From Archangiaceae bacterium (GTDB taxonomy: Bacteria; Myxococcota; Myxococcia; Myxococcales; Myxococcaceae): a DNA stretch of 29,444 nucleotides. The notes beneath the pieces were generated by a model. It searched no databases. It had not been told where the DNA came from and saw nothing but the letters and a program-made list of their open reading frames with translations. The stretch spans positions 1 to 29,444 of the forward strand of contig JAYVCD010000354.1 in the NCBI GenBank assembly GCA_043750125.1. The letters are read 5' to 3'. The translations under genes were made by a program, and so were the position numbers. This document shows, one piece after another, positions 16,507-29,444 of the stretch; the first letter of the stretch is position 1, and each line of letters opens with the position of its first letter.

Positions 16507-17620
16507 TCGCGTGCGCCTGGTCTGCCTGGGCCTGCTGCTGACTTCGAGCCTCACCCAATCGGCCGAGGTCAAGGCTTCGGGTTCGGCGTACTTTGATTAC
16601 TGGGGGATGTCTTCGGAACGAGCGCGGGTCGGATCAATCGCCGGAATCACGCCCGAGATGGCGATCAAGATTGAAGCCGAGGCGCACGAGAAGCTCTCGT
16701 TCACCGGCCGCATCTGCTTCGGCTGCCATGGCCTGGAAGTCGATCGCGCGCATGTGGACTTCACCCCGTACGACCAGATCAACATTCAAGCGGGGCGCAT
16801 CGGAGTTCCGTTTGGGGACTTTGCCCTGCGCTACGAGCCGACTTCTCGGCACACGGTCACCAACCCGCTGATCTTCGAAATGGGCCGGATGTCGTACTAC
16901 CAGAAGTCGGCGTTCAACCTGGGCGTGGTGCCCCAGCCCTATGTGGACACCGGAGTGATCGTCTACGGGCAGTTCGCGCTCAGCGACACCCTGGCCCTTT
17001 GGTACGGGGCGTATGGAGTGGCGGGCTTCAAGGGCAACAACGACTTCGACTACCCCTCGATGCGCACTCCGTTCTACGCCGACAACAACAAGTTACCGTC
17101 GTGGGGGGGGCGGTTGAAGCTCAGCTACACCGCGTCGGACGCGGACTTCAAGGTGAGGAGCATCACCCTGGGAGTGTCCGGAATGCACGGCCGCTACGAC
17201 CCTCAACACACCCGCGACTACACGGCATTGGGCGTCGATGCGACCACCCGGATTGGGATCGCGACGATTCGAGCCGAAGTCGCCTTCCTGCGGGTGAACC
17301 TCGACCCCGCGGTTTCAGGTTATGGCTACGCGTTGCTCGACCCCTGGATCGAGAAGGGCGGCGCCTATTTCGAGATCGAGCACCCACTGTTCGAGCGGTT
17401 GATTCTCGTCTACCGGGCCGATGCCTTGCGTCGGGTCGGCGTTCAGTTGCCGGGCGCCGACCCCCGCCTTTCGCCCGACAGCTGGATCTTGCGTTACACC
17501 CAGGCGCTGCAGCTCGAGCTTGCGTACGGGGTGTATTTGAAGGGCGAGTACCAATACTCGTGGATGAACGACTTCCCTTCGTTCCACAGCTTTCACGCCG
17601 GGCTGGGGGGCGCCTTTTGA
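16499..17620 (+). CDS. Outer-membrane beta-barrel (porin-like) protein with a CxxCH motif
   Basis: Signal peptide, alternating amphipathic strands, IQAGRIGVPFG porin-type motif, terminal Phe, and CFGCH. Overlaps the upstream stop by 8 nt. Confidence 0.75.
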   Translation: MTDRVRLVCLGLLLTSSLTQSAEVKASGSAYFDYWGMSSERARVGSIAGITPEMAIKIEAEAHEKLSFTGRICFGCHGLEVDRAHVDFTPYDQINIQAGRIGVPFGDFALRYEPTSRHTVTNPLIFEMGRMSYYQKSAFNLGVVPQPYVDTGVIVYGQFALSDTLALWYGAYGVAGFKGNNDFDYPSMRTPFYADNNKLPSWGGRLKLSYTASDADFKVRSITLGVSGMHGRYDPQHTRDYTALGVDATTRIGIATIRAEVAFLRVNLDPAVSGYGYALLDPWIEKGGAYFEIEHPLFERLILVYRADALRRVGVQLPGADPRLSPDSWILRYTQALQLELAYGVYLKGEYQYSWMNDFPSFHSFHAGLGGAF

Positions 17621-19467
17621 GCGACCCGAGCGGCCCGATCAAATTCGGGAAGTACACCGTTCTGGCGCGCATCGGCGCCGGAGGGATGGCTGAGGTCTTC
17701 AAGTGCCGGCAGGCGGGCATCGGGGGCTTCGACAAGATCGTGGTGATCAAGAGGATCCTTCCGGACCTCGCCCAGGATCCCGAGATCGTCACGATGTTCC
17801 TCGACGAAGCGCGGCTGGCGGCAAATCTGAACCACCCGAACATCATTCAAATCTACGAAATCGACGAGTTCGGCGGGCTGCCCTACATCGCGATGGAATA
17901 TGTCCAGGGGCCGACGTTCCGCTCGATGCTCGGAATGCAGAAGCGCGCCGACCTGCCCTTCGAGATGGGCGTGGCGGCGAAGGTGATGTCCGGCATCTGC
18001 TCGGCGCTCTATTACGTTCACAACACCTGCGACGTGCAGGGCCGGCCGCTGCAGATGATTCACCGCGACGTGAGCCCGCCCAACATTCTCGTTTCGACCG
18101 ACGGAGTGCCCAAGCTGCTCGACTTCGGAGTCGCTAAAGCGCTCAGCCAGGCCTCGACCACGCGGGCCGGAGCCGTCAAAGGCAAGCTGAAGTTCATGCC
18201 CCCCGAGCAGATGCAGCCCGACGTTCAAATCGATCACCGCCTCGATATTTTTTCGGCGGGCGTCTGCCTCTACCAGGCCACCACCGGCCGGCTGCCGTAC
18301 AACGGGGTCGACGACGTGGCGATCATCATCGCCGCGGCGAAAGGCGAATTTCTGCCGCCGAGCGCGCTGGTTCCGGGCTACCCCCCCGAGCTGGAACAAA
18401 TCGTTCTGTGGGCGATGGAGCCGGACCGCAACAAGCGGTGCCCGAACGCAGACTTGCTGCACCAGGCGTTGGAAAAGTTCGTGGCGACGGCTCCATACGA
18501 GACCTCGACCCGAACGGTGAAGCAGCACATCGCCACCCTGTTCCCCCGGCTGGAAGAAGACAGCCGGGCGATGATCAACGCCTACTCGTCGGGCAAGCAC
18601 ACCGGGTCGCTCTCGTCCTTTCAACCGTCGGAAGCCATCGAAGCACGCCGAAACTCGCGCCCGTTGCCCGTGGTCGAAGAGTCGATCGCCCCGACTCGGC
18701 GCAGAGGCGTGATCGCTGTCGCGGCTTTCATCGCGCTGGCTGCAATCGCAACAGCAATCTGGCTCCTGGCCCGATCTCCGAAGGAACCGATCGCTGACCC
18801 GAGCGCAGAGGCGCGGTCGCACCTCGCGCTGGCCGAAGAGCTGATCGCGGCCCACAAACCCGAGATGGCGCGCGAGGCGCTGGGCCTGGCCCGGAAATCG
18901 AACATGGATGGCGCGCTTCAGGTTCGGGCCCGGGCGCTCGATGCTCAATTGGCCGCGCTCGCGCCGGTGGTGCCTACGCTCAAGCCCGTGCCCGTCGAGG
19001 TCTACGTCCCCACATCCCAGGGTCCGCCGGACAAGCCGAAAGTCGTCAACAATCGCCCCTCGAAGAAACCCGTTGCCGCGAAGAGCCCTGTTCCCGCCCC
19101 ACCCGAAGTGGCCAGGCCCGCGCCTGCGCCGGTGCCCGTGACAGTCGCCCCGGTGAAAGTTGAGCCCGCCCGGCCGCCGCCCGTCGCGGTGGCAGCCGCA
19201 GCGCCCGCCTCGCCTGCCGCCGACGACTTCGGGTGCAAGGACGACGCGGTTGCAAAAGGGGCGGGGCCGCCGCGAGGCACCTCTCGATGGTGTGAAGCGC
19301 CCGACGGCACCAAGCAGGGCCGGTCGGTGCGCTGGTACGCCAACGGGGTCAAAGCCGAAGAAGGCGAGTACAAGAACGGGAAGAAGAACGGCCGGTGGAT
19401 CGAGTACTTCGAAAGCGGTCTCGAGCGAGAACGCACCAACTGGCGTCGGGGCGTCACCGCCTTTTGA
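17617..19467 (+). CDS. Hanks-type Ser/Thr protein kinase with TM helix, Pro/Ala linker and C-terminal MORN-variant (YwqK-like) domain
   Basis: GAGGMA, VIK, HRDVSPPN, DFG and FMPPE motifs; TM GVIAVAAFIALAAIATAIWLLA; WYANG.K..EGEYKNGKKNGRW.EYFESG. TTG start overlaps the porin stop (TTGA). Confidence 0.92.
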   Translation: MSDPSGPIKFGKYTVLARIGAGGMAEVFKCRQAGIGGFDKIVVIKRILPDLAQDPEIVTMFLDEARLAANLNHPNIIQIYEIDEFGGLPYIAMEYVQGPTFRSMLGMQKRADLPFEMGVAAKVMSGICSALYYVHNTCDVQGRPLQMIHRDVSPPNILVSTDGVPKLLDFGVAKALSQASTTRAGAVKGKLKFMPPEQMQPDVQIDHRLDIFSAGVCLYQATTGRLPYNGVDDVAIIIAAAKGEFLPPSALVPGYPPELEQIVLWAMEPDRNKRCPNADLLHQALEKFVATAPYETSTRTVKQHIATLFPRLEEDSRAMINAYSSGKHTGSLSSFQPSEAIEARRNSRPLPVVEESIAPTRRRGVIAVAAFIALAAIATAIWLLARSPKEPIADPSAEARSHLALAEELIAAHKPEMAREALGLARKSNMDGALQVRARALDAQLAALAPVVPTLKPVPVEVYVPTSQGPPDKPKVVNNRPSKKPVAAKSPVPAPPEVARPAPAPVPVTVAPVKVEPARPPPVAVAAAAPASPAADDFGCKDDAVAKGAGPPRGTSRWCEAPDGTKQGRSVRWYANGVKAEEGEYKNGKKNGRWIEYFESGLERERTNWRRGVTAF

Positions 19468-22511: not shown

Positions 22512-24122
22512 CCCTGGCTCAAGAGGCGTTGTTGGGGACGAAGAGTCCGGCCCGATTTCTCGAAGAGACCTGGGCGTTGTTCACCGCGGTCACGGCCCAG
22601 TTGACCGCGGACAAGCCGCTGCTGGACGAGCCGTTCATCCTCCATGTCCCGGCGCTGCAGCGGCACGTCGCGGCGCTCAAAGAAGATCATCGGCTGTTCG
22701 GTGCGGATTTCGACCAGGCCCGGCGCTACGAGGTCCTGCTGCCTGCCTCTGCGTCGCTGACCGGAGGACGACGGGCCTTGAAGTTGTTGGTGCTGAAGGT
22801 GCCGGCTGCGTCCCAGTTCAAGCTGTGGGCCCGTCGGGACGGCTACCCGATGGTCCTGGTCGAGCAGCCCGGCGGGTTGATCGTGCTGTCGGTGGATCCC
22901 ACGGCGAAGGTTCGAATCGAACAGCTGGCCGCGCTGCTGACCCAGGCTGACTCAGGGCGGGCCTGGTACGACGGCGCGCGGCACGAGGGGACGTTGATCG
23001 CCTCGTCCCAGGCAGGCACCCGGCTGAAGCTCGAAGACGTGGTCGATGTTCTCGGCAGCTGGGCCCGGGTGCGTCGAAAAGGAAGCGTCGTCTCATCGCG
23101 GGTCCGCGTGGGGGTCTTCAGCGCGGCGGGGCTGGTGCTTCTCTTCGCAGTCGTCGCGGCGTCCCGGCAGCCCCCGGTCGGCCTGGCCCCCGTCGAGCCC
23201 GAAATCACCGGAAGCCAAAGGAGACCCCATTCCCCCCGCCCAGCTGATCAGCCTGCTGGCTTCTGCCGAAGGTCCGGCGTCTTTGACTTCCTACGCGCTC
23301 GTCGCCGGGGTCTGCGGTTACACCGGCGATCGTGCGCTGAATTCTCCGTGCCGCGACGCGCGCGAAGTGCGGCACCTGCTGGTGGGAAGGCTCGGATACG
23401 CGCCCGAGAACGTGCTGTACCTGATCGACAAACCGGATCCAGACGAGAAGACCGATGGGCCGCCGACTGCCGCCAACCTTCGGCTTCAAATCGAGAAGTT
23501 CCGCACCCGCTTTTCCGCGCGTGAACAGTCGAGCTTCTTCTTTTTCTACTCAGGTCATGGCGGCTACGAGAAGGGAGCACGCAAGGACTATGGGGTGCTT
23601 CAGCCCTCGGGCTATTTCGAGAACCCCGATCTGCCGATGTCTGATCGCGGCTGGGACATGCAAGAGCTGCTCGATGGCATCCGCAAAGGGGTGCCCTGCA
23701 TGCATGTGATGGTGGTGCTCGACGCCTGCTACAGCGGGTGGGCGGTAGGCGCGAAAGGTGAGGCAACTCTTACCGAGGCGATGCACTCGCTGTGGAAAGA
23801 GCGGGCCGAGGTGGTGATCACCGCCGGAACCAAGGGGCAGCGCGCCTGGGAAGACGAGGCCGAAGCAGGCGCCTGGCAGTGGGGTGGGCATTCGGCGCTG
23901 ACCGCGTTCCTCCTCGAAGGTCTAGGCGCGTCGGGCCGCCCGAAGGCCGACACCAACGCAGACAAGGTCGTCACCGATGAAGAGCTTGCCCGGTACCTGC
24001 GGGCACACGTTCCTGGCGCGGTCCGGCAGCTGAAGAAATCGGAGCAGACCCCTCAGTTCTTCCGTTTTGATGAGGCGCTGCCCCGCAGCGGGCAGTTTCT
24101 TTTCCTCCCCAAAGAAAATTGA
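22451..24122 (+). pseudogene. Frameshifted, probably 5'-truncated gene: unknown cytoplasmic domain - TM - caspase-like (C14) peptidase
   Basis: Frame A (22493) is coding-like up to EPEITG (23212). Frame B continues AKGDPIP... from 23214 with YSGHG (His 23556) and LDACYSG (Cys 23727). One extra A at 23212/23213 separates them. Confidence 0.75.
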
Positions 24123-24191: not shown

Positions 24192-24677
24192 ATGCTGCTT
24201 TTACTGGATAGGCGGATCCTCCCGAACTGGGACACGATTCAGGCCGAGTGGGATGGCTGCCTGGCGTTCTTCGGGCAGGCAGGAATGACGTCCGATCAGG
24301 CTCACGTTCTCGCGATGGCGACCCACGAGCTGTTGGAAAACGCCGTGAAGTACGGAGAGTTCGCCGCCGATCAGGTCATCGACCTTCGACTCGAAGCTTC
24401 GGTGAGGGAAATCACCATTGAAGTGCGCAGCCCCACCCATGCCGACGGGCGGGGGCTCAAAACGCTCGACGACACCATTCAGTGGATTCGCGGTTTTCAA
24501 AACCCGTTCGAGGCCTACGTCGAGAAGCTGAAGCAGGTGGCGGCCCGGACCTACAACACCGAATTTTCGGGCCTCGGCCTGGTGCGCATCGCCTACGAAG
24601 CGCAGTGCGTGATCGATTTTTACGTGGACGACGCGGATCACGTGGCGCTCTCGGCGGTGTACAGGTTGCCGCAATGA
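24192..24677 (+). CDS. Stand-alone GHKL kinase, anti-sigma-factor/SiaB/slr1658-like
   Basis: N-box HELLENAVKYG and G-box SGLGLVRI; 161 aa; no H-box/DHp domain. Confidence 0.8.
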   Translation: MLLLLDRRILPNWDTIQAEWDGCLAFFGQAGMTSDQAHVLAMATHELLENAVKYGEFAADQVIDLRLEASVREITIEVRSPTHADGRGLKTLDDTIQWIRGFQNPFEAYVEKLKQVAARTYNTEFSGLGLVRIAYEAQCVIDFYVDDADHVALSAVYRLPQ

Positions 24678-26050
24678 CTGACGTCGAGTCGATCGTTCGG
24701 CTGCGGGGAACCCTGATTCGCAATCAGGAAGAGCTCTCGGTCGGACTCAGCCCGCTGTCGCGTCTGACACTCGCAGTGGAGTTCCCTTCCGGCACCGTGC
24801 CTGAGCCCGGCACGATCTTCGACCAGCTCAAAGTGGTGCTCCCTGATCAGGAAGTCGCTTTGACCCGCTGCCGCGTCGAGCTGGGCAAGGCCGGAACCGG
24901 CGCCCGGCTGATCTTCCTCGATGAGGTCTATGACTGCGACGCGCTGATGACCGAGGGCCGGCTCGTCAACCTCAAGGCCTTTCTCGACAAGCTGCCTTTG
25001 ATCCTCACCCAGAAGGACGACGTCTCGCACGAGTTCAAGGAATACGTCGCCGACCTGACCTTCGGGCTCTCGGTCTACGAGAAATTCTTCAACGAGCAGG
25101 ACCGCATCTATTCGGCCGAAGATCCGCTGGTGGTCGCCGCCGCGCAGGCCGCGCTGATCAAGACCCATGCGGCCACGTTCAATCGGTACTTCGACGCAGA
25201 GCTGGCGCGGCTCGATGCGCTGGTAGCCCCCCTGAATCGCGACGCCTACGAGCGATGCGGCACCTACTTTCGACGGGTGATGTGGGACTTCATCCTCGGC
25301 TCGGAATTTTTCAAACGCACCAACTTGAAGCCGCGCGGGTATGCCGGCGACGCGACGATGATGAAGATGATCTACGAGGACCGCTTCCAGGGTCGCTACG
25401 TTTTCAACCAACTGCTGCACCGCCATGGCGTTTCCGTTCCCGCCGCCCAGGCGGTTCGAAGTCGGCGCCGCCTGATTTCCGGGCTGATGCGATCGATGCC
25501 AGGCAATGCCCCGCGTCGCTTCTTCTCAGTCGCCTGCGGCCCCGCGTGGGAACTGCGAGATGTGCTGTCCACCGCGGGCGAGGCCGAGAGGTGGGAAGGC
25601 GTCCTTCTGGATCAAGATGCCGAGGCCCTTTCCGTGGCGCAGGAAGGCCTGACCCAGACTGGGGCCAAGCTTGGGTGCACGCTCAAAGTCGAGTGCGTCA
25701 ACGACTCGGTGCGAACGATGTTGCGCACGCCCGAGCTGACGACCCGGTTCGGCACGTTTGATTTCGTCTATTCGATGGGGCTGTTCGACTATCTGACCCC
25801 GCCGGTGGCCCAGGTGCTGTTGCGCAAGCTGGCGGCGCTGCTGCGCCCCGGAGGCACGCTGTTGATCGGCAACTATCACGTCGGAAACCCGACTCGGCAT
25901 TACATGGCCTTCTGGATGGACTGGGTGCTCTACCTGCGCACCGAAGAAGAGTTTCTGGGGTTGGCCCACGGCATCGCGGCAACCCGGGTGTCGATCGGGT
26001 GGGACGAGACGAGAAGCCAGATGTTCCTTCGGGTGGACAAGGCCGCTTGA
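24674..26050 (+). CDS. Class I SAM-dependent methyltransferase, PhcB-like
   Basis: KPRGYAGD, AQAVRSRR, motif I SVACGPAWE, LLDQD, FDFVYSMGLFDYL, LRPGG.L.IGN and MDW.L..R motifs. ATGA overlap with the kinase. Confidence 0.8.
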   Translation: MTDVESIVRLRGTLIRNQEELSVGLSPLSRLTLAVEFPSGTVPEPGTIFDQLKVVLPDQEVALTRCRVELGKAGTGARLIFLDEVYDCDALMTEGRLVNLKAFLDKLPLILTQKDDVSHEFKEYVADLTFGLSVYEKFFNEQDRIYSAEDPLVVAAAQAALIKTHAATFNRYFDAELARLDALVAPLNRDAYERCGTYFRRVMWDFILGSEFFKRTNLKPRGYAGDATMMKMIYEDRFQGRYVFNQLLHRHGVSVPAAQAVRSRRRLISGLMRSMPGNAPRRFFSVACGPAWELRDVLSTAGEAERWEGVLLDQDAEALSVAQEGLTQTGAKLGCTLKVECVNDSVRTMLRTPELTTRFGTFDFVYSMGLFDYLTPPVAQVLLRKLAALLRPGGTLLIGNYHVGNPTRHYMAFWMDWVLYLRTEEEFLGLAHGIAATRVSIGWDETRSQMFLRVDKAA

Positions 26051-27441
26051 CCACTCTGGTCCGTCAGGAAGCCCCGGTCGCACGGACGCGGACCCACTTC
26101 GAGATCTACCGCGACGATCTGATTCACAGCTGGCTGCGCATCCTCACCATGCTCGGCTACGCGCTGATCCCGATCTTCTTCATTCTCGACTCGGTGATGA
26201 TGCCCAACGAGCTGCTGAGCAAGTTCGCGATCTATCGCGGCCTGGCGACGGGGCTCGTGCTGCTGCAGAACCTGATGGTCCGGCGAATGAAACCCAGTCG
26301 GTTCTCATTCCTCCACGGCTACGCGTTTTCGTTCGTGGTCTCGTTGATGATCGTCCAGATGACGGTCTCGCTGGGAGGCTTCAACTCGACCTATTACGCC
26401 GGTCTCAACCTCGTGCTGGTGGCCGTCAACCTGCTGTTGCCCTGGCGCGCGCTGCACTCGGCGATCAATGGGCTGCTGGTGCTGGCGCTGTACATGGTGT
26501 GGAACTGGTATTTCGGAGGCGCCACCGAGATCAGAGATCTGGTGAACAACCTGTATTTCCTCGGCGGCACCATCGTGATTTCGGTCGCGCTTTCTCACGT
26601 GCGCTTCCAACAGATCTCGCAGGAATTCCTGCTGCGTCAGGATCTGCTCAGCGCCAATGACAGCCTCGCCACCTCGCGGGCCGAGCTGAAGGGAGCGCGC
26701 GATGCCCTCTGGGGCGAGATGGAAGTCGCTCAGCGCATTCAGACCGCCCTGCTGCCCAACAACTGTCGGTTGGGGCGGTACGAGATCGCGGCGGTGATGC
26801 AGCCGGCGGCCGAAGTGGGTGGCGACTACTACGACTTCCTTCAGACCGCGCACGGTGAAAAGTGGCTGGCGGTCGGTGATGTCTCGGGGCACGGGGTCGA
26901 GTCGGGGCTGGTGATGATGATGACCCAGACGGCGATCGCCACCCTGGTGGGGGAAGCGCCCGGCCGGGCCCCCTCGACTGTCTTTTCCGACGTGAATCGC
27001 ACGCTGATGACGAACATCGCCCGACTGGGCACCACGCGCTTCATGACGCTGAGCATCGTGCGGTTGAACGAAGCCAGCCTCACGCTCGCCGGCAAACACC
27101 AGGACCTGTTGATCTGGCGCGCGGCGGAAAAACGCGTCGAGACCGTGACCTACGAAGGCTGTTGGATCGGAGTGGTGAGCGAAACGCTGGGCCGGTCGAT
27201 GGACGTAGAAGTGCCGCTGGCGAACGGGGACGTGGTGCTCTTCTTCACCGACGGGGTGACCGAAGCCTCGAACGCCGAGGGAAAGATGTTCGGCCAGGAC
27301 AAGCTCGCAGCGGGCTTTGCAGAGGTGGCCCAGTTGCCGCCGGCCGAGGCGCTGCAGCGGCTGGTGCAGATGGTCAACGGCTGGCAAAAGCGCCAAGAGG
27401 ACGACGTGACGCTGGTGCTGTTGCGCTTCGGGCCGGGCTGA
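26047..27441 (+). CDS. 6-TM sensor - coiled coil - PP2C/SpoIIE (RsbU/SiaA-like) phosphatase
   Basis: EVGGDYYD, GDVSGHG, FTDGVTEA and EDDVTL motifs; six N-terminal hydrophobic helices including GGFNSTYYAGLNL. TTGA overlap with the methyltransferase. Confidence 0.92.
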   Translation: MTTLVRQEAPVARTRTHFEIYRDDLIHSWLRILTMLGYALIPIFFILDSVMMPNELLSKFAIYRGLATGLVLLQNLMVRRMKPSRFSFLHGYAFSFVVSLMIVQMTVSLGGFNSTYYAGLNLVLVAVNLLLPWRALHSAINGLLVLALYMVWNWYFGGATEIRDLVNNLYFLGGTIVISVALSHVRFQQISQEFLLRQDLLSANDSLATSRAELKGARDALWGEMEVAQRIQTALLPNNCRLGRYEIAAVMQPAAEVGGDYYDFLQTAHGEKWLAVGDVSGHGVESGLVMMMTQTAIATLVGEAPGRAPSTVFSDVNRTLMTNIARLGTTRFMTLSIVRLNEASLTLAGKHQDLLIWRAAEKRVETVTYEGCWIGVVSETLGRSMDVEVPLANGDVVLFFTDGVTEASNAEGKMFGQDKLAAGFAEVAQLPPAEALQRLVQMVNGWQKRQEDDVTLVLLRFGPG

Positions 27442-27450
27442 CCCGCCTCT

Positions 27451-27834
27451 TCAGCTGGACTGAAACGTCACCATTCCCGCATCGAGTGCGTCGAAGGGCT
27501 TGAGCGCCCGCTTGAGCGCGTCGAACGACAAGGTCTGCCAGTGTTGGGTCGCGTCGTAGAAGACGGCGAGGCGCACCTTCTTCGACTGGGCCTGATTGAT
27601 GATCTGAATCAGCGCCGAAATGGTCGAGGAGTTGAAGTGCTCGAGCTTTTCGAAGTGGACCTCGATTCGGCCATTTCGCTCGACGGCGCGCTTGAGCAGG
27701 TCGGCGAAGTAGGGGACCAGTTGTTTTCCGGGTTCACGGCTGGTGCTGCGTCCGTGCAGCTCGACAATCAGCGCCGATGGATCTGAGTCCCGAAGCGTGA
27801 GTCGCAATTCGTCGAAGGTGGCTTCAGTCGTCAT
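27451..27834 (-). CDS. STAS-like anti-anti-sigma / SiaC-like phospho-acceptor protein
   Basis: L.GRS..REP...L.PYF and F.KLEHFNSSTI (cf. SpoIIAA FMDSSG, SiaC Y.NTSS); 127 aa; AGGA RBS. Confidence 0.78.
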   Translation of the reverse strand: MTTEATFDELRLTLRDSDPSALIVELHGRSTSREPGKQLVPYFADLLKRAVERNGRIEVHFEKLEHFNSSTISALIQIINQAQSKKVRLAVFYDATQHWQTLSFDALKRALKPFDALDAGMVTFQSS

Positions 27835-27876
27835 GGGCCGGACATCCTATCGTTCGCTGCGGGGGTGACGAGATTT

Positions 27877-28182
27877 TCACTGGCGGCGGCGCCACGACAA
27901 CAGCTTCCCGCCCACCCCGGTTCCGAAAACGACGACGGTGAAGATCGCGGTGTAGGCAAGAAACACCTTCCACCCCCCCCGTACTCCCGGGCCAGCCAAC
28001 CCCCGGGTCCATCTCGTTGAACTGCGCTCCCGAGAAGAACCCGCAGACGATGGTCCATTCCTTCGAAATGTTCCTTTCGGTACTCGTCGATTTCCGTCGT
28101 CTGGCTGCGCAGCGCTTCGACCGCCTGTTCCATCTGGTACATCAAAGAGGGAATCGATCGCTTTCTGCACGCCGGGGTCCAT
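27877..28182 (-). pseudogene. Probable degraded small membrane-protein gene
   Basis: Protein-like segments are spread across three frames: MDPGVQKAIDSL / MYQMEQAVEALRSQTTEIDEY / EWTIVCGFFSGAQFNEM / WKVFLAYTAIFTVVVFG...WRRRQ. Confidence 0.35.
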
Positions 28183-28216
28183 TGGAGGCGGCGCAGCATA
28201 GGGGGAGAAGGCGCGC

Positions 28217-29444
28217 ATGACCGCATTCGTGCTGGGGCGCGCGCAGCACGACATTGAGGCGATGGTCGGTCGCGGCCGGTCAGCCGACTACAAAGGGGCG
28301 ATGCAGAACGCTCGCCTGGTGCTCGAGGCGCTGCTGCGGGCGATGGTCACCGATCAGCTCAAGCAGACTCCGGGCAAGGCGATGCTCGACGAGCTGATCA
28401 CCAAATTCCGCCAGCAGGCCAACCAGGGCCTCGTCCCCACCAACGTCCTGGCCCACATGGGCACCGTGCAGTCCTGGGGCAATCTGTCGTCGCACGATCA
28501 GGCCACCCGGCTGTCGGACGAGGCGGTGAAGGTCGGGAAGCTCGAAGTGGTCGCCTCGCTCAACTCGATGGTCGCGGTCCACGACTGGTATGCCGACGCG
28601 TTCGGCCAGACGTTGGTGAAGGCCCAGGCGTCGTCCACCACCGCGGCCCCCGCCTCAGGCCCGCGAAATCGGAAAGCGCCCCTGGTCTTCGGCGCGGTCC
28701 TGCTCGGATCTGCTGCGGTCGGCGCTTACTTCTTCACCCGGCCCCCTGCCGCGGCGGTCAGCCCCGCCTCGCCGTTCCTCGCGGTCGACGCGCACTACGC
28801 GAAATGGAACGAGCCGTTGCCACCGCACCGATGCCAAAGAGCGATGCGAGCGCTGAGCTTCCTCGTGCTGCTGGCCGCCGGACTGGCGAGCGCGGCGCCG
28901 CTGAAGCTCGCGGTGATCTACGGCCACAATGGGGGCACCCAGACCCGGGCCGCCTTGCGGTTTGCGGAAGCCGACGCGGCGCGGGTCGCAGCGACTTTGA
29001 CCGAAGGGGCGCAGGCCATTCTCTACGTCTACCTCTCGGCCCATGGCGATGACGCGCGCGGGCTCGAGCTGGGAGCGCAGACCCTGCCCTGGGCCGACCT
29101 GAAATCGAGACTCACCGCGACGCGGGCCGACGTTCGGGTGGCGTTCATCGATGCCTGCAACGCGTCAGGAATGTTGGACGTCGGCGGGCGCGCGACGCCG
29201 CAGTTCGATCTTCACGCCGACGATCGCCTCACCGTGGCGGGCGAAGCGGTGATTACGTCCAGCGCGGCGAATGAGCCGTCGCTCGAAGCGGGGGCCTACC
29301 GGGGCAGCGTCTTCACCCATCACTTGATCGCCGCCCTGCGCGGCGCGGGAGACCGATCGGGCGATCGGCGGGTGTCCCTCGAAGAGGCCTACGCGTACGC
29401 CTATGCCCGAACGGTGGAAGGTCAAAGCGGCCAGCACCCAGGCT
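28217..29444 (+). CDS. Partial ORF (runs off the window): HEPN/DUF4145-like domain - TM - internal signal peptide - caspase-like (C14) peptidase
   Basis: I translated 409 stop-free codons from ATG 28217 (GGAGAAGG RBS); the ORF track omits it because it has no stop. Motifs: NARLVLEALLR, WGNLSSHD, TM, second ATG 28844 (MRALSFLVLLAAGLASAAP), LRFAEADA, YLSAHG, FIDAC, FTHHLIAALRG. Confidence 0.8.
   Translation, partial: MTAFVLGRAQHDIEAMVGRGRSADYKGAMQNARLVLEALLRAMVTDQLKQTPGKAMLDELITKFRQQANQGLVPTNVLAHMGTVQSWGNLSSHDQATRLSDEAVKVGKLEVVASLNSMVAVHDWYADAFGQTLVKAQASSTTAAPASGPRNRKAPLVFGAVLLGSAAVGAYFFTRPPAAAVSPASPFLAVDAHYAKWNEPLPPHRCQRAMRALSFLVLLAAGLASAAPLKLAVIYGHNGGTQTRAALRFAEADAARVAATLTEGAQAILYVYLSAHGDDARGLELGAQTLPWADLKSRLTATRADVRVAFIDACNASGMLDVGGRATPQFDLHADDRLTVAGEAVITSSAANEPSLEAGAYRGSVFTHHLIAALRGAGDRSGDRRVSLEEAYAYAYARTVEGQSGQHPG

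Follow-up and report, generated by a model that had tools for sequence, protein, structure and literature searches.

Phc-type methyl-ester quorum sensing has been described in the Ralstonia solanacearum complex (PMC7694676). In that account PhcB is the signal synthase and PhcS the sensor, and the two co-evolve with the type of signal (PMC7694676); the histidine of PhcS that is phosphorylated is given as residue 230 (PMC7694676, PMC11960443). The names PhcB and PhcS are also carried by Cupriavidus proteins found in our protein searches. A relative of this system is encoded by a four-gene cassette on contig JAYVCD010000354.1 of an Archangiaceae bacterium (GCA_043750125.1), which was analysed as a window of 29,444 nt. 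The cassette encodes a GHKL-like protein, a methyltransferase, a PP2C phosphatase and a STAS-like switch protein, called here K, M, P and S, respectively. From the gene order, the homologies, the conservation, the linkage of synthase and sensor and a computed K-M interface, we propose, with a probability of about one half, that M and P are a Phc-like synthase/receptor pair, and that the output of this receptor would be Ser/Thr dephosphorylation feeding back on signal synthesis. The four genes are laid out as follows.

24192-24677, forward strand: K, 161 amino acids, a GHKL-like protein of the anti-sigma-factor kinase type and a distant relative of slr1658
24674-26050, forward strand: M, 458 amino acids, a PhcB-family class I S-adenosylmethionine (SAM)-dependent methyltransferase
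26047-27441, forward strand: P, 464 amino acids, a membrane PP2C phosphatase with a TTG start
27451-27834, reverse strand: S, 127 amino acids, a STAS/SpoIIAA-like phospho-switch protein, convergent with P

A first-pass annotation of this DNA had read three genes joined by 4-nt overlaps and a convergent gene 9 nt away, and both the coordinates and the DNA bear this out: the stop codon of K overlaps the start codon of M in ATGA (24674-24677), that of M overlaps the start codon of P in TTGA (26047-26050), and the stop codons of P (27439-27441) and S (27451-27453) are separated by 9 nt. The motifs that it had pointed out, KPxGYAGD and ACGPAxE in M and FNSST in S, are present and are conserved in the homologue alignments. 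GC content at third codon positions (GC3) is 0.78-0.86 in K, M, P and S.

The N-terminal half of P links this locus to the Phc system. P had been called a phosphatase with six transmembrane (TM) helices, and this call held: it matches the Pfam family SpoIIE at E 3.5e-35, and its AlphaFold model, with a predicted local distance difference test score (pLDDT) of 91.6 overall and above 94 in the six-helix N-terminal part, has six helices, whereas in a crude hydropathy count only four peaks were strong. The sixth is a single modelled helix of residues 162-233 that runs into the PP2C domain. P can be divided into three parts.

26074-26607, forward strand: P residues 10-187, the predicted six-helix PhcS-type membrane sensor domain, related to MASE8, with the motifs LD....P, F..YR, YYAGLNL and NNLYF
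26608-26745, forward strand: P residues 188-233, the signalling helix, continuing TM6 into the catalytic domain in the model
26764-27429, forward strand: P residues 240-461, the SpoIIE-type PP2C catalytic domain, with intact metal-binding motifs

In the catalytic domain, D260, D278, G281-H282-G283, D402-G403 and D452-D453 are invariant in 37 homologues. By contrast, in distant loci the gene that follows the methyltransferase gene matches only the first 215 residues of P in tblastn. A hidden Markov model (HMM) of 46 N-terminal domains of PP2C proteins, searched against the 3105 open reading frames (ORFs) of 81 loci, found 33 further proteins at E 2e-92 to 2e-5 and nothing between E 2e-5 and 10. 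On a Paraburkholderia graminis plasmid, tblastn revealed a methyltransferase gene followed by a histidine kinase gene and two response regulator genes; the methyltransferase shares 68% identity with Cupriavidus proteins, among them some, such as P0431, that are named PhcB, and the PhcS-like kinase is matched by the PP2C-domain HMM at E 2.6e-13. The first 225 residues of this kinase retrieved 120 listed matches, many of them named PhcS and including proteins of Ralstonia pseudosolanacearum and R. syzygii. All 120 of these listed PhcS-like proteins are matched by the PP2C-domain HMM (median E 4e-12), with E 1.8e-12 and 1.2e-13 for two R. pseudosolanacearum PhcS proteins, and all carry the precomputed label PF20968.4 (MASE8), a domain that is mentioned in passing in a preprint (bioRxiv 10.1101/2021.11.05.467447). 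In the reverse direction, an HMM of PhcS N-terminal domains matches the P of the window at E 6.6e-12; it matched 72 of 3106 sequences, and the 70 inspected are all membrane proteins of loci fetched through M. LD....P, F..R, YYAGLNL and NNxFF are common to the aligned sensor domains of all output classes. On these reciprocal profile matches, the membrane domain of P is taken to be homologous to the sensor domain of PhcS.

The second line of evidence is that this domain accompanies the methyltransferase. The 80 best loci were fetched through M alone with a narrower M-family alignment, and K, S, M and the sensor domain were tabulated in them with a six-frame HMM search; no Ralstonia locus is among these best 80. 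The combinations were as follows.

K, S, M and sensor: 43 of 80 loci, the sensor protein being a P-like PP2C protein (in L022 its gene runs into a contig end, and in L040 it is split)
M and sensor: 21 of 80 loci
K, M and sensor: 6 of 80 loci
M, S and sensor: 3 of 80 loci, in which a contig end cuts upstream
K, S and M: 3 of 80 loci, two of them cut just after M
M alone: 4 of 80 loci, two of them cut by a contig end

The sensor domain adjoins M in 73 of the 80 loci; a contig end truncates four of the other seven. A wider co-occurrence of the four genes, which the first-pass annotation had raised, was thereby found: seven phylum-level labels are represented among the 43 complete sets (Myxococcota, Thermodesulfobacteriota, Calditrichota, Neomarinimicrobiota, Pseudomonadota, Spirochaetota and SAR324), and two Leptospira species, L. 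alstonii and L. alexanderi, are among the carriers from Spirochaetota. The cassette is not confined to myxobacteria. Its usual order is K-S-M-P on one strand, and in Myxococcota a second, convergent S follows P. The domain architectures joined to the sensor domain differ between loci; by Pfam they are PP2C, HisKA-HATPase with or without a receiver, PAS or GAF-PAS kinases, PAS-GGDEF-EAL, Hpt-HATPase of CheA-like type, and adenylate/guanylate cyclase. Such interchangeable outputs are the pattern expected of an input module, which these sensor domains would then be.

A check that did not start from M gave the linkage from the other side. Of 301 Myxococcota genomes searched for K, the sensor domain and the M family, 31 have a match to K, 77 to the sensor domain and 110 to the M family. 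A sensor domain lies within 1 kb of 60 of the 64 full-length M genes, and M lies within 1 kb of 63 of the 111 sensor-domain matches; when the genome G196 is dropped, the counts 31, 77, 110, 60, 64, 63 and 111 are each one lower.

M itself scores 29.7 bits with Pfam Methyltransf_25 (cut-off 27) and belongs to a large family, with 4149 representative clusters at E <=0.001 and 301 at E <=1e-30. Many of its 120 closest homologues listed carry the Joint Genome Institute name 'extracellular factor (EF) 3-hydroxypalmitic acid methyl ester biosynthesis protein', whereas NCBI names the same proteins plain class I methyltransferases. Two signatures are conserved through the family, KPRGYAGD (M residues 219-226) and ACGPAWE (residues 287-293), and alignment with P0431, the protein of Cupriavidus necator N-1 named PhcB, gives E 3e-34 over M residues 159-424. 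In a quick IQ-TREE analysis of 80 C-terminal parts, from which six loci with truncated or split genes (L039, L058, L059, L060, L063 and L066) were left out, the M of the window and all 47 other PP2C-linked proteins fall into one clade of 56 rows, with a Shimodaira-Hasegawa-like approximate likelihood ratio test (SH-aLRT) value of 100 and a stem of 1.19. Across the 80 loci, K and S are found only alongside this clade. Gammaproteobacterial cassettes (Natronospirillum, Saccharospirillum and Ectothiorhodospiraceae) nest among those of Spirochaetota and SAR324 in the tree, a placement that suggests horizontal transfer of the whole cassette. By homology and shared motifs M is best placed in the PhcB family in a broad sense, rather than as a PhcB orthologue.

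The AlphaFold model of M (pLDDT 95.4, predicted template-modelling score 0.88) has three parts.

24701-24916, forward strand: M residues 10-81, a PilZ-like beta-barrel by its modelled strands, in which the cyclic di-GMP (c-di-GMP) motif [DN]xSxxG is lacking
24935-25495, forward strand: M residues 88-274, a family-specific helical cap that carries KPRGYAGD, by the model and the motif conservation
25514-26038, forward strand: M residues 281-455, a Rossmann methyltransferase domain with ACGPAWE, LLDQD and GLFDYL, likewise modelled

Pfam PilZ gives no match in the barrel either. Of the 56 members of the K-bearing clade that could be evaluated, 53 lack the [DN]xSxxG motif, as do the PhcB-named proteins; 7 of 9 cyclase-linked relatives and 5 of 7 kinase-linked relatives from Polyangiaceae have it. 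An exchange of one regulatory input for another may lie behind this difference. A Foldseek search of the Protein Data Bank (PDB) placed 3ocj, an unannotated Bordetella protein, at the top, together with small-molecule O- and C-methyltransferases, and returned no functionally characterised close structural neighbour of M; a single-sequence PDB search gave weak generic matches.

K and S were found through weaker similarities. In Pfam, K scores 17.7 bits with HATPase_c_2 (cut-off 27.4), and S scores 18.9 with STAS (cut-off 22.6) and 17.8 bits with SiaC, PF09345 (cut-off 24.5), all sub-threshold. The NCBIfam models slr1658 and slr1659 (NF047703 and NF047705) give 41.2 and 35.4 bits for K and S, respectively, against cut-offs of 100, and NF047703 gives 39.9 bits for K in the genome search. 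K and S can be regarded as related to the slr1658 and slr1659 superfamilies, not as members by the NCBI threshold. A single-sequence search of the PDB gave no match for K and only spurious matches for S, whereas a profile of K homologues matches the solved SpoIIAB (E 0.02) and one of S homologues matches TM1442 (E 2.7e-5), SpoIIAA (E 0.007) and SiaC (E 0.63). The earlier calls of a GHKL kinase and a STAS protein agree with these profile matches, although the Pfam and NCBIfam scores stay below their cut-offs; the proposed identities of K and S are based on weak but consistent matches. Among 31 homologues of K, the N-box ELxENAxKYG is conserved (E46, E49, N50, K53 and Y54), as are a family-specific stretch, TIQWIRGFQDPFEAY, and SGLGL..IAYE, of which SGLGL is a G2-like box. 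The FNSST of S spans residues 67-71, where N68, S69 and S70 are invariant and T71 nearly so in 37 homologues, and it contains the following candidate site.

27628-27630, reverse strand: the codon of S Ser69, the likely phospho-acceptor, after the invariant Asn68

SiaC is reported to be phosphorylated at T68 in LLYLNTSSIK, directly after an Asn (PMC7647112). By this analogy Ser69 would be the counterpart of SiaC T68 and is likely to accept the phosphate.

Because the conserved set includes no sigma factor or other regulator, docking of M on the K/S pair was modelled. K, S and M were given as alignments in a job of three chains with M as the scored partner, and the resulting model reached an ipSAE of 0.74, compared with 0.02 for the best of three controls. 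In the calibration of the tool, 58 of 80 solved complexes attained this level, as did 2 of 110 mismatched pairs; these counts apply only roughly to a job built on three chains and on alignments made for it. Between runs, at least 75% of the contacts are shared, and the pLDDT of the partner is at least 85. When K was swapped for an unrelated protein the score fell to 0.02, so that it is K on which M is predicted to dock. The predicted interface comprises K residues 72-77, 89-107 and 138-160 and M residues 188-197, 219-223, 345-353, 373-382 and 412-426; from the usual layout of class I methyltransferases, we infer that the M residues ring the cofactor and substrate cleft. No similar solved complex was found in the PDB by sequence. 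The model supports binding of K to M and suggests that the partner switch gates the synthase itself. In five loci without S and PP2C (L045, L050, L054, L058 and L059, from Desulfobacterales and 'delta proteobacterium' metagenome-assembled genomes) K still adjoins M, and this, as well as the lack of the PilZ motif in most of the K clade, fits a K-M partnership. The STAS protein had been placed at the end of the pathway in the first-pass annotation; the complex model instead puts M on the GHKL protein and makes the synthase the predicted target.

Two other explanations of K and M bear on this model. K could be an ordinary anti-sigma-factor kinase whose target is encoded elsewhere, with a false-positive K-M interface and an M that is merely co-transcribed. 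Its best PDB profile matches are indeed the anti-sigma F factor SpoIIAB and RsbW, mismatched pairs did reach the mark twice among 110 in the calibration of the complex tool, and loss of slr1658, a distant relative, is reported to alter gene expression in Synechocystis (PMC7555055). However, the conserved set holds no sigma factor gene, K is confined to the M clade that it accompanies and remains beside M when S and P are lost, and the control in which K was replaced lost the score; we consider this explanation improbable. M could also be a CheR-like protein methyltransferase that acts on carboxylates of the signalling helix, of K or of S, with no small molecule involved. M would then be expected next to the sensor whatever the output of the latter, as it is, and K is predicted at the active-site face of M; there is also a weak match to the CheR SAM domain at E 0.025. 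Yet this match scores 14.4 bits against a cut-off of 27, the best structural neighbours of M are small-molecule methyltransferases, and PhcB, the one characterised member of the family, is described as a methyl 3-hydroxy fatty acid ester synthase, all of which makes a protein substrate quite improbable.

In the circuit that we propose for M, P, K and S, M would most likely methylate a small lipophilic molecule, by analogy with PhcB a fatty-acid-type carboxylate that would become a methyl ester. The sensor domain of P would bind this product or a close derivative of it within the membrane, and the presumed binding would set the activity of the phosphatase. P would dephosphorylate S at Ser69, the putative phosphosite, and K, if it acts as a kinase, would phosphorylate S. 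Free K would hold M at the face around the active site, and dephosphorylated S would draw K off M, so that, with each regulatory step taken to have this sign, perception of the signal would feed back on its synthesis. The result would be an autoinduction loop that runs through a partner switch instead of transcription. A self-made signal read by a PP2C phosphatase had been suggested before; a PhcS-homologous domain that travels with the M family under five outputs speaks strongly for it, while the methyl ester as its chemical form is retained as an analogy.

Several observations weigh against the proposed circuit, the first group of them on the side of the synthase. M is only 30% identical to PhcB, and its first 160 residues are unaligned. 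PhcB-named proteins form a clade of their own (SH-aLRT 100) on a long stem of 2.71, away from M, and join a Polyangiaceae clade with weak support (85). The claim that the methyltransferase is PhcB-like is therefore sustained as to homology but not as to clustering, and a methyltransferase that clusters away from PhcB is one of the outcomes that the first-pass annotation had named as counting against its reading. Since M lies outside the PhcB clade, a 3-hydroxy fatty acid methyl ester as its product is only an analogy, and because of this position, the low identity and the unaligned N-terminal region, its product could be a different molecule from that of PhcB. Release of the product from the cell, or its sensing by other cells, would likewise be an extension by analogy and finds no support here. 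On the side of the sensor, the domain of the window P has no match to the local, older MASE8 model (PF20968.2) even at E 10, while the same model gives E 0.005 for a PhcS-like protein and 0.15-0.42 for relatives; the genome of the window (89% complete) holds only one sensor-domain gene. As to the switch, the DxGxG (G1) ATP-binding box was not found in K or its 31 homologues, and because of this and the Pfam and NCBIfam scores below their cut-offs K may not be an active kinase; its kinase activity is plausible but not assured. The K-M interface is given by the confidence of the model itself, from an unusual three-chain job, and the window shows no sign of an output to gene expression.

Two further facts against the circuit are also the main ones in favour of a third explanation: 48 of the 111 Myxococcota sensor-domain matches have no M within 1 kb, and short M paralogues without the N-terminal domain are found in many large genomes of Myxococcaceae in which the sensor domain has no match. 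These paralogues, present in one to four copies per genome, match the profile only from positions of about 160-216 to 474 (for example in G218, G172 and G297, of 9-13 Mb), and, since their genomes are free of the sensor, the catalytic core of the M family can be said to be used outside the circuit as well. P might, in this alternative, sense an external or membrane cue such as the state of the membrane, a host lipid or a nutrient, and M might be only the output, turned on or off by the partner switch and acting on a metabolite or lipid that the cell itself uses, so that no self-made signal would exist. The orphan sensor genes indicate that the domain can work without a local synthase, the K-M docking model fits, and SiaABCD and BgrUWV/BgrR are described as partner switches that control an enzyme (PMC7647112). 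On the other hand, the sensor stands beside nearly every full-length M gene (60 of 64), the domain is homologous to PhcS, the sensor of the PhcB product, and the adjacency of M and sensor is kept while the output changes five times, which is hard to explain without a shared ligand or mutual action. We hold this explanation to be unlikely and prefer the synthase/receptor pair with its feedback on synthesis.

If the pairing reflects Phc logic, it would amount to an unrecognised chemical language in many bacteria, including predators (Bdellovibrio), social myxobacteria and Leptospira. For each signal, the pairing points to the gene that would have to be expressed and to the membrane domain that would be expected as its receptor, and it offers a candidate class of ligands for the orphan MASE8-related PhcS-type domain. 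In the switch branch, the sequestered target of a partner switch would be an enzyme that makes a small molecule, in place of a sigma factor or a cyclase, and would be of a new class. A wider generalisation can be put forward only tentatively: PhcB/PhcS-type signalling might be a phylum-spanning family of lipid-like autoinducers, with one synthase family and one intramembrane receptor domain joined to varied outputs (kinases, cyclases, c-di-GMP enzymes and phosphatases), and the captive of the partner switch in the present version might be the synthase, giving a post-translational autoinduction loop without a transcription factor. The range envisaged in this joint reading, and just as doubtful, would comprise Myxococcota, Spirochaetota including Leptospira, Bdellovibrionota, Thermodesulfobacteriota, Gammaproteobacteria and others. 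Searches of the literature turned up no account of the circuit. Among the papers listed, none joins PhcB with partner switching, and none of those listed for Leptospira, Myxococcus or Anaeromyxobacter mentions PhcB; nothing was found on PhcB-like or PhcS-like homologues by name, nor any paper that combines four or more of PilZ, SAM-dependent methyltransferase, PP2C, anti-sigma factor antagonist and quorum sensing. New here are the assignment of the sensor domain to the proposed PhcS type, the finding that this domain is shuffled among outputs, and the modelled docking of M on K.

The loci fetched through M include several variants. Two S paralogues per locus occur in the Myxococcota loci L002, L004, L006, L008, L010, L011, L013, L014 and L021, usually one between K and the methyltransferase and one convergent after PP2C; the window keeps the convergent one only. 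The five S-less loci have the order methyltransferase, K, sensor and are a variant within the PP2C clade; the sensor is fused to a histidine kinase and a receiver domain in L045, L050, L054 and L058, and the methyltransferase is split into two or three ORFs in L058 and L059. A second sensor-domain gene follows the PP2C gene in L016, L017, L020, L024, L025 and L034, with a PAS or GAF-PAS kinase and a receiver as its output in L016, L017 and L020, a PAS kinase without a receiver match in L034 and PAS-GGDEF-EAL in L025; this second gene may encode a further receiver for the signal, one through which the output runs. In Bdellovibrionota (L062, L064, L065, L067, L074-L076, L080 and L081) the methyltransferase is followed by the sensor fused to an adenylate/guanylate cyclase, apart from L067, whose sensor-domain gene is cut by a contig end so that no output domain is visible. 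By its domains this version looks like a c-di-GMP-gated synthase with a receptor that produces a cyclic nucleotide. The PP2C gene of L040 (7398-8817) is split into ORFs of 350 and 199 amino acids, which suggests a frameshift or an assembly error.

In genome G019 (G019:C1:643033-644153), a K match and a sensor-domain match lie directly side by side; no full-length methyltransferase is near them, and the one methyltransferase match is a short form at a distance of 33 kb. Two plasmid matches to M are of other kinds: that of Pseudanabaena is a truncated gene beside a transposon, and that of Rhizobium pRL12 encodes a methyltransferase of the short form, next to a GGDEF-EAL gene and without switch genes in the vicinity.

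Around the cassette of the window, caspase-like genes (Peptidase_C14) flank both sides, at 23046-24122 on the forward strand and at 28217-29443 on the forward strand, the latter extending past the end of the window and carrying DUF4145 at its N-terminus. They match the NCBIfam model 'caspase, EACC1-associated type' under its cut-off. A eukaryote-type Ser/Thr kinase gene (16999-19467, forward strand; Pkinase E 2.2e-36) lies 5 kb upstream of the cassette. The ORF at 27831-28226 on the reverse strand was rejected as a gene, with a GC3 of 0.63, no family match and no homologue in the 80 loci. A scan for promoters and terminators found no promoter-like site; it found one terminator-like hairpin, located inside the gene upstream of the cassette.

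Among the known partner switches, SiaABCD of Pseudomonas aeruginosa comes close in logic, since the membrane PP2C SiaA, the kinase SiaB and the phosphoprotein SiaC are described as controlling an enzyme encoded in the same operon (PMC7647112, PMC8457831), and Ser69 of the window S stands at the position equivalent to SiaC T68. The enzyme of that system is a diguanylate cyclase, whereas here it would be a methyltransferase, and SiaC, the phosphoprotein, binds the enzyme there, whereas the model here puts the kinase-like K on it. The sensor domain is not the same either, and the window proteins miss the cut-offs of the Sia families (17.8 against 24.5 bits for SiaC, PF09345; 62 against 700 bits for SiaA, NF038263). 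In the bgrRSTUWV system of Sinorhizobium meliloti, the partner switch BgrU/BgrW/BgrV is likewise reported to control a cyclase, BgrR (PMC7647112). RsbU/RsbV/RsbW and SpoIIE/SpoIIAA/SpoIIAB form the same triad of PP2C phosphatase, STAS antagonist and GHKL anti-factor; unlike these, the window set has no sigma factor, its K has no recognisable G1 box, and the proposed captive of K is an enzyme. In the alpha-hydroxyketone systems CqsA/CqsS and LqsA/LqsS, an autoinducer synthase gene adjoins that of a multi-pass sensor that binds a lipophilic signal in the membrane, although the synthase family is unrelated to that of the window and the sensors are histidine kinases. The Phc system differs from the window in that PhcS ends in a histidine kinase and the window sensor in PP2C, in that the window lacks the PhcR/PhcQ receivers and has GHKL and STAS-like proteins in addition, and in that the window methyltransferase falls into another well-supported clade and has another N-terminal region. 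Nevertheless, the two share a methyltransferase family, with 30% identity and both KPxGYAGD and ACGPAxE in common, and in both of them the methyltransferase gene is followed directly by that of a membrane protein with a homologous six-helix YYAGLNL sensor.

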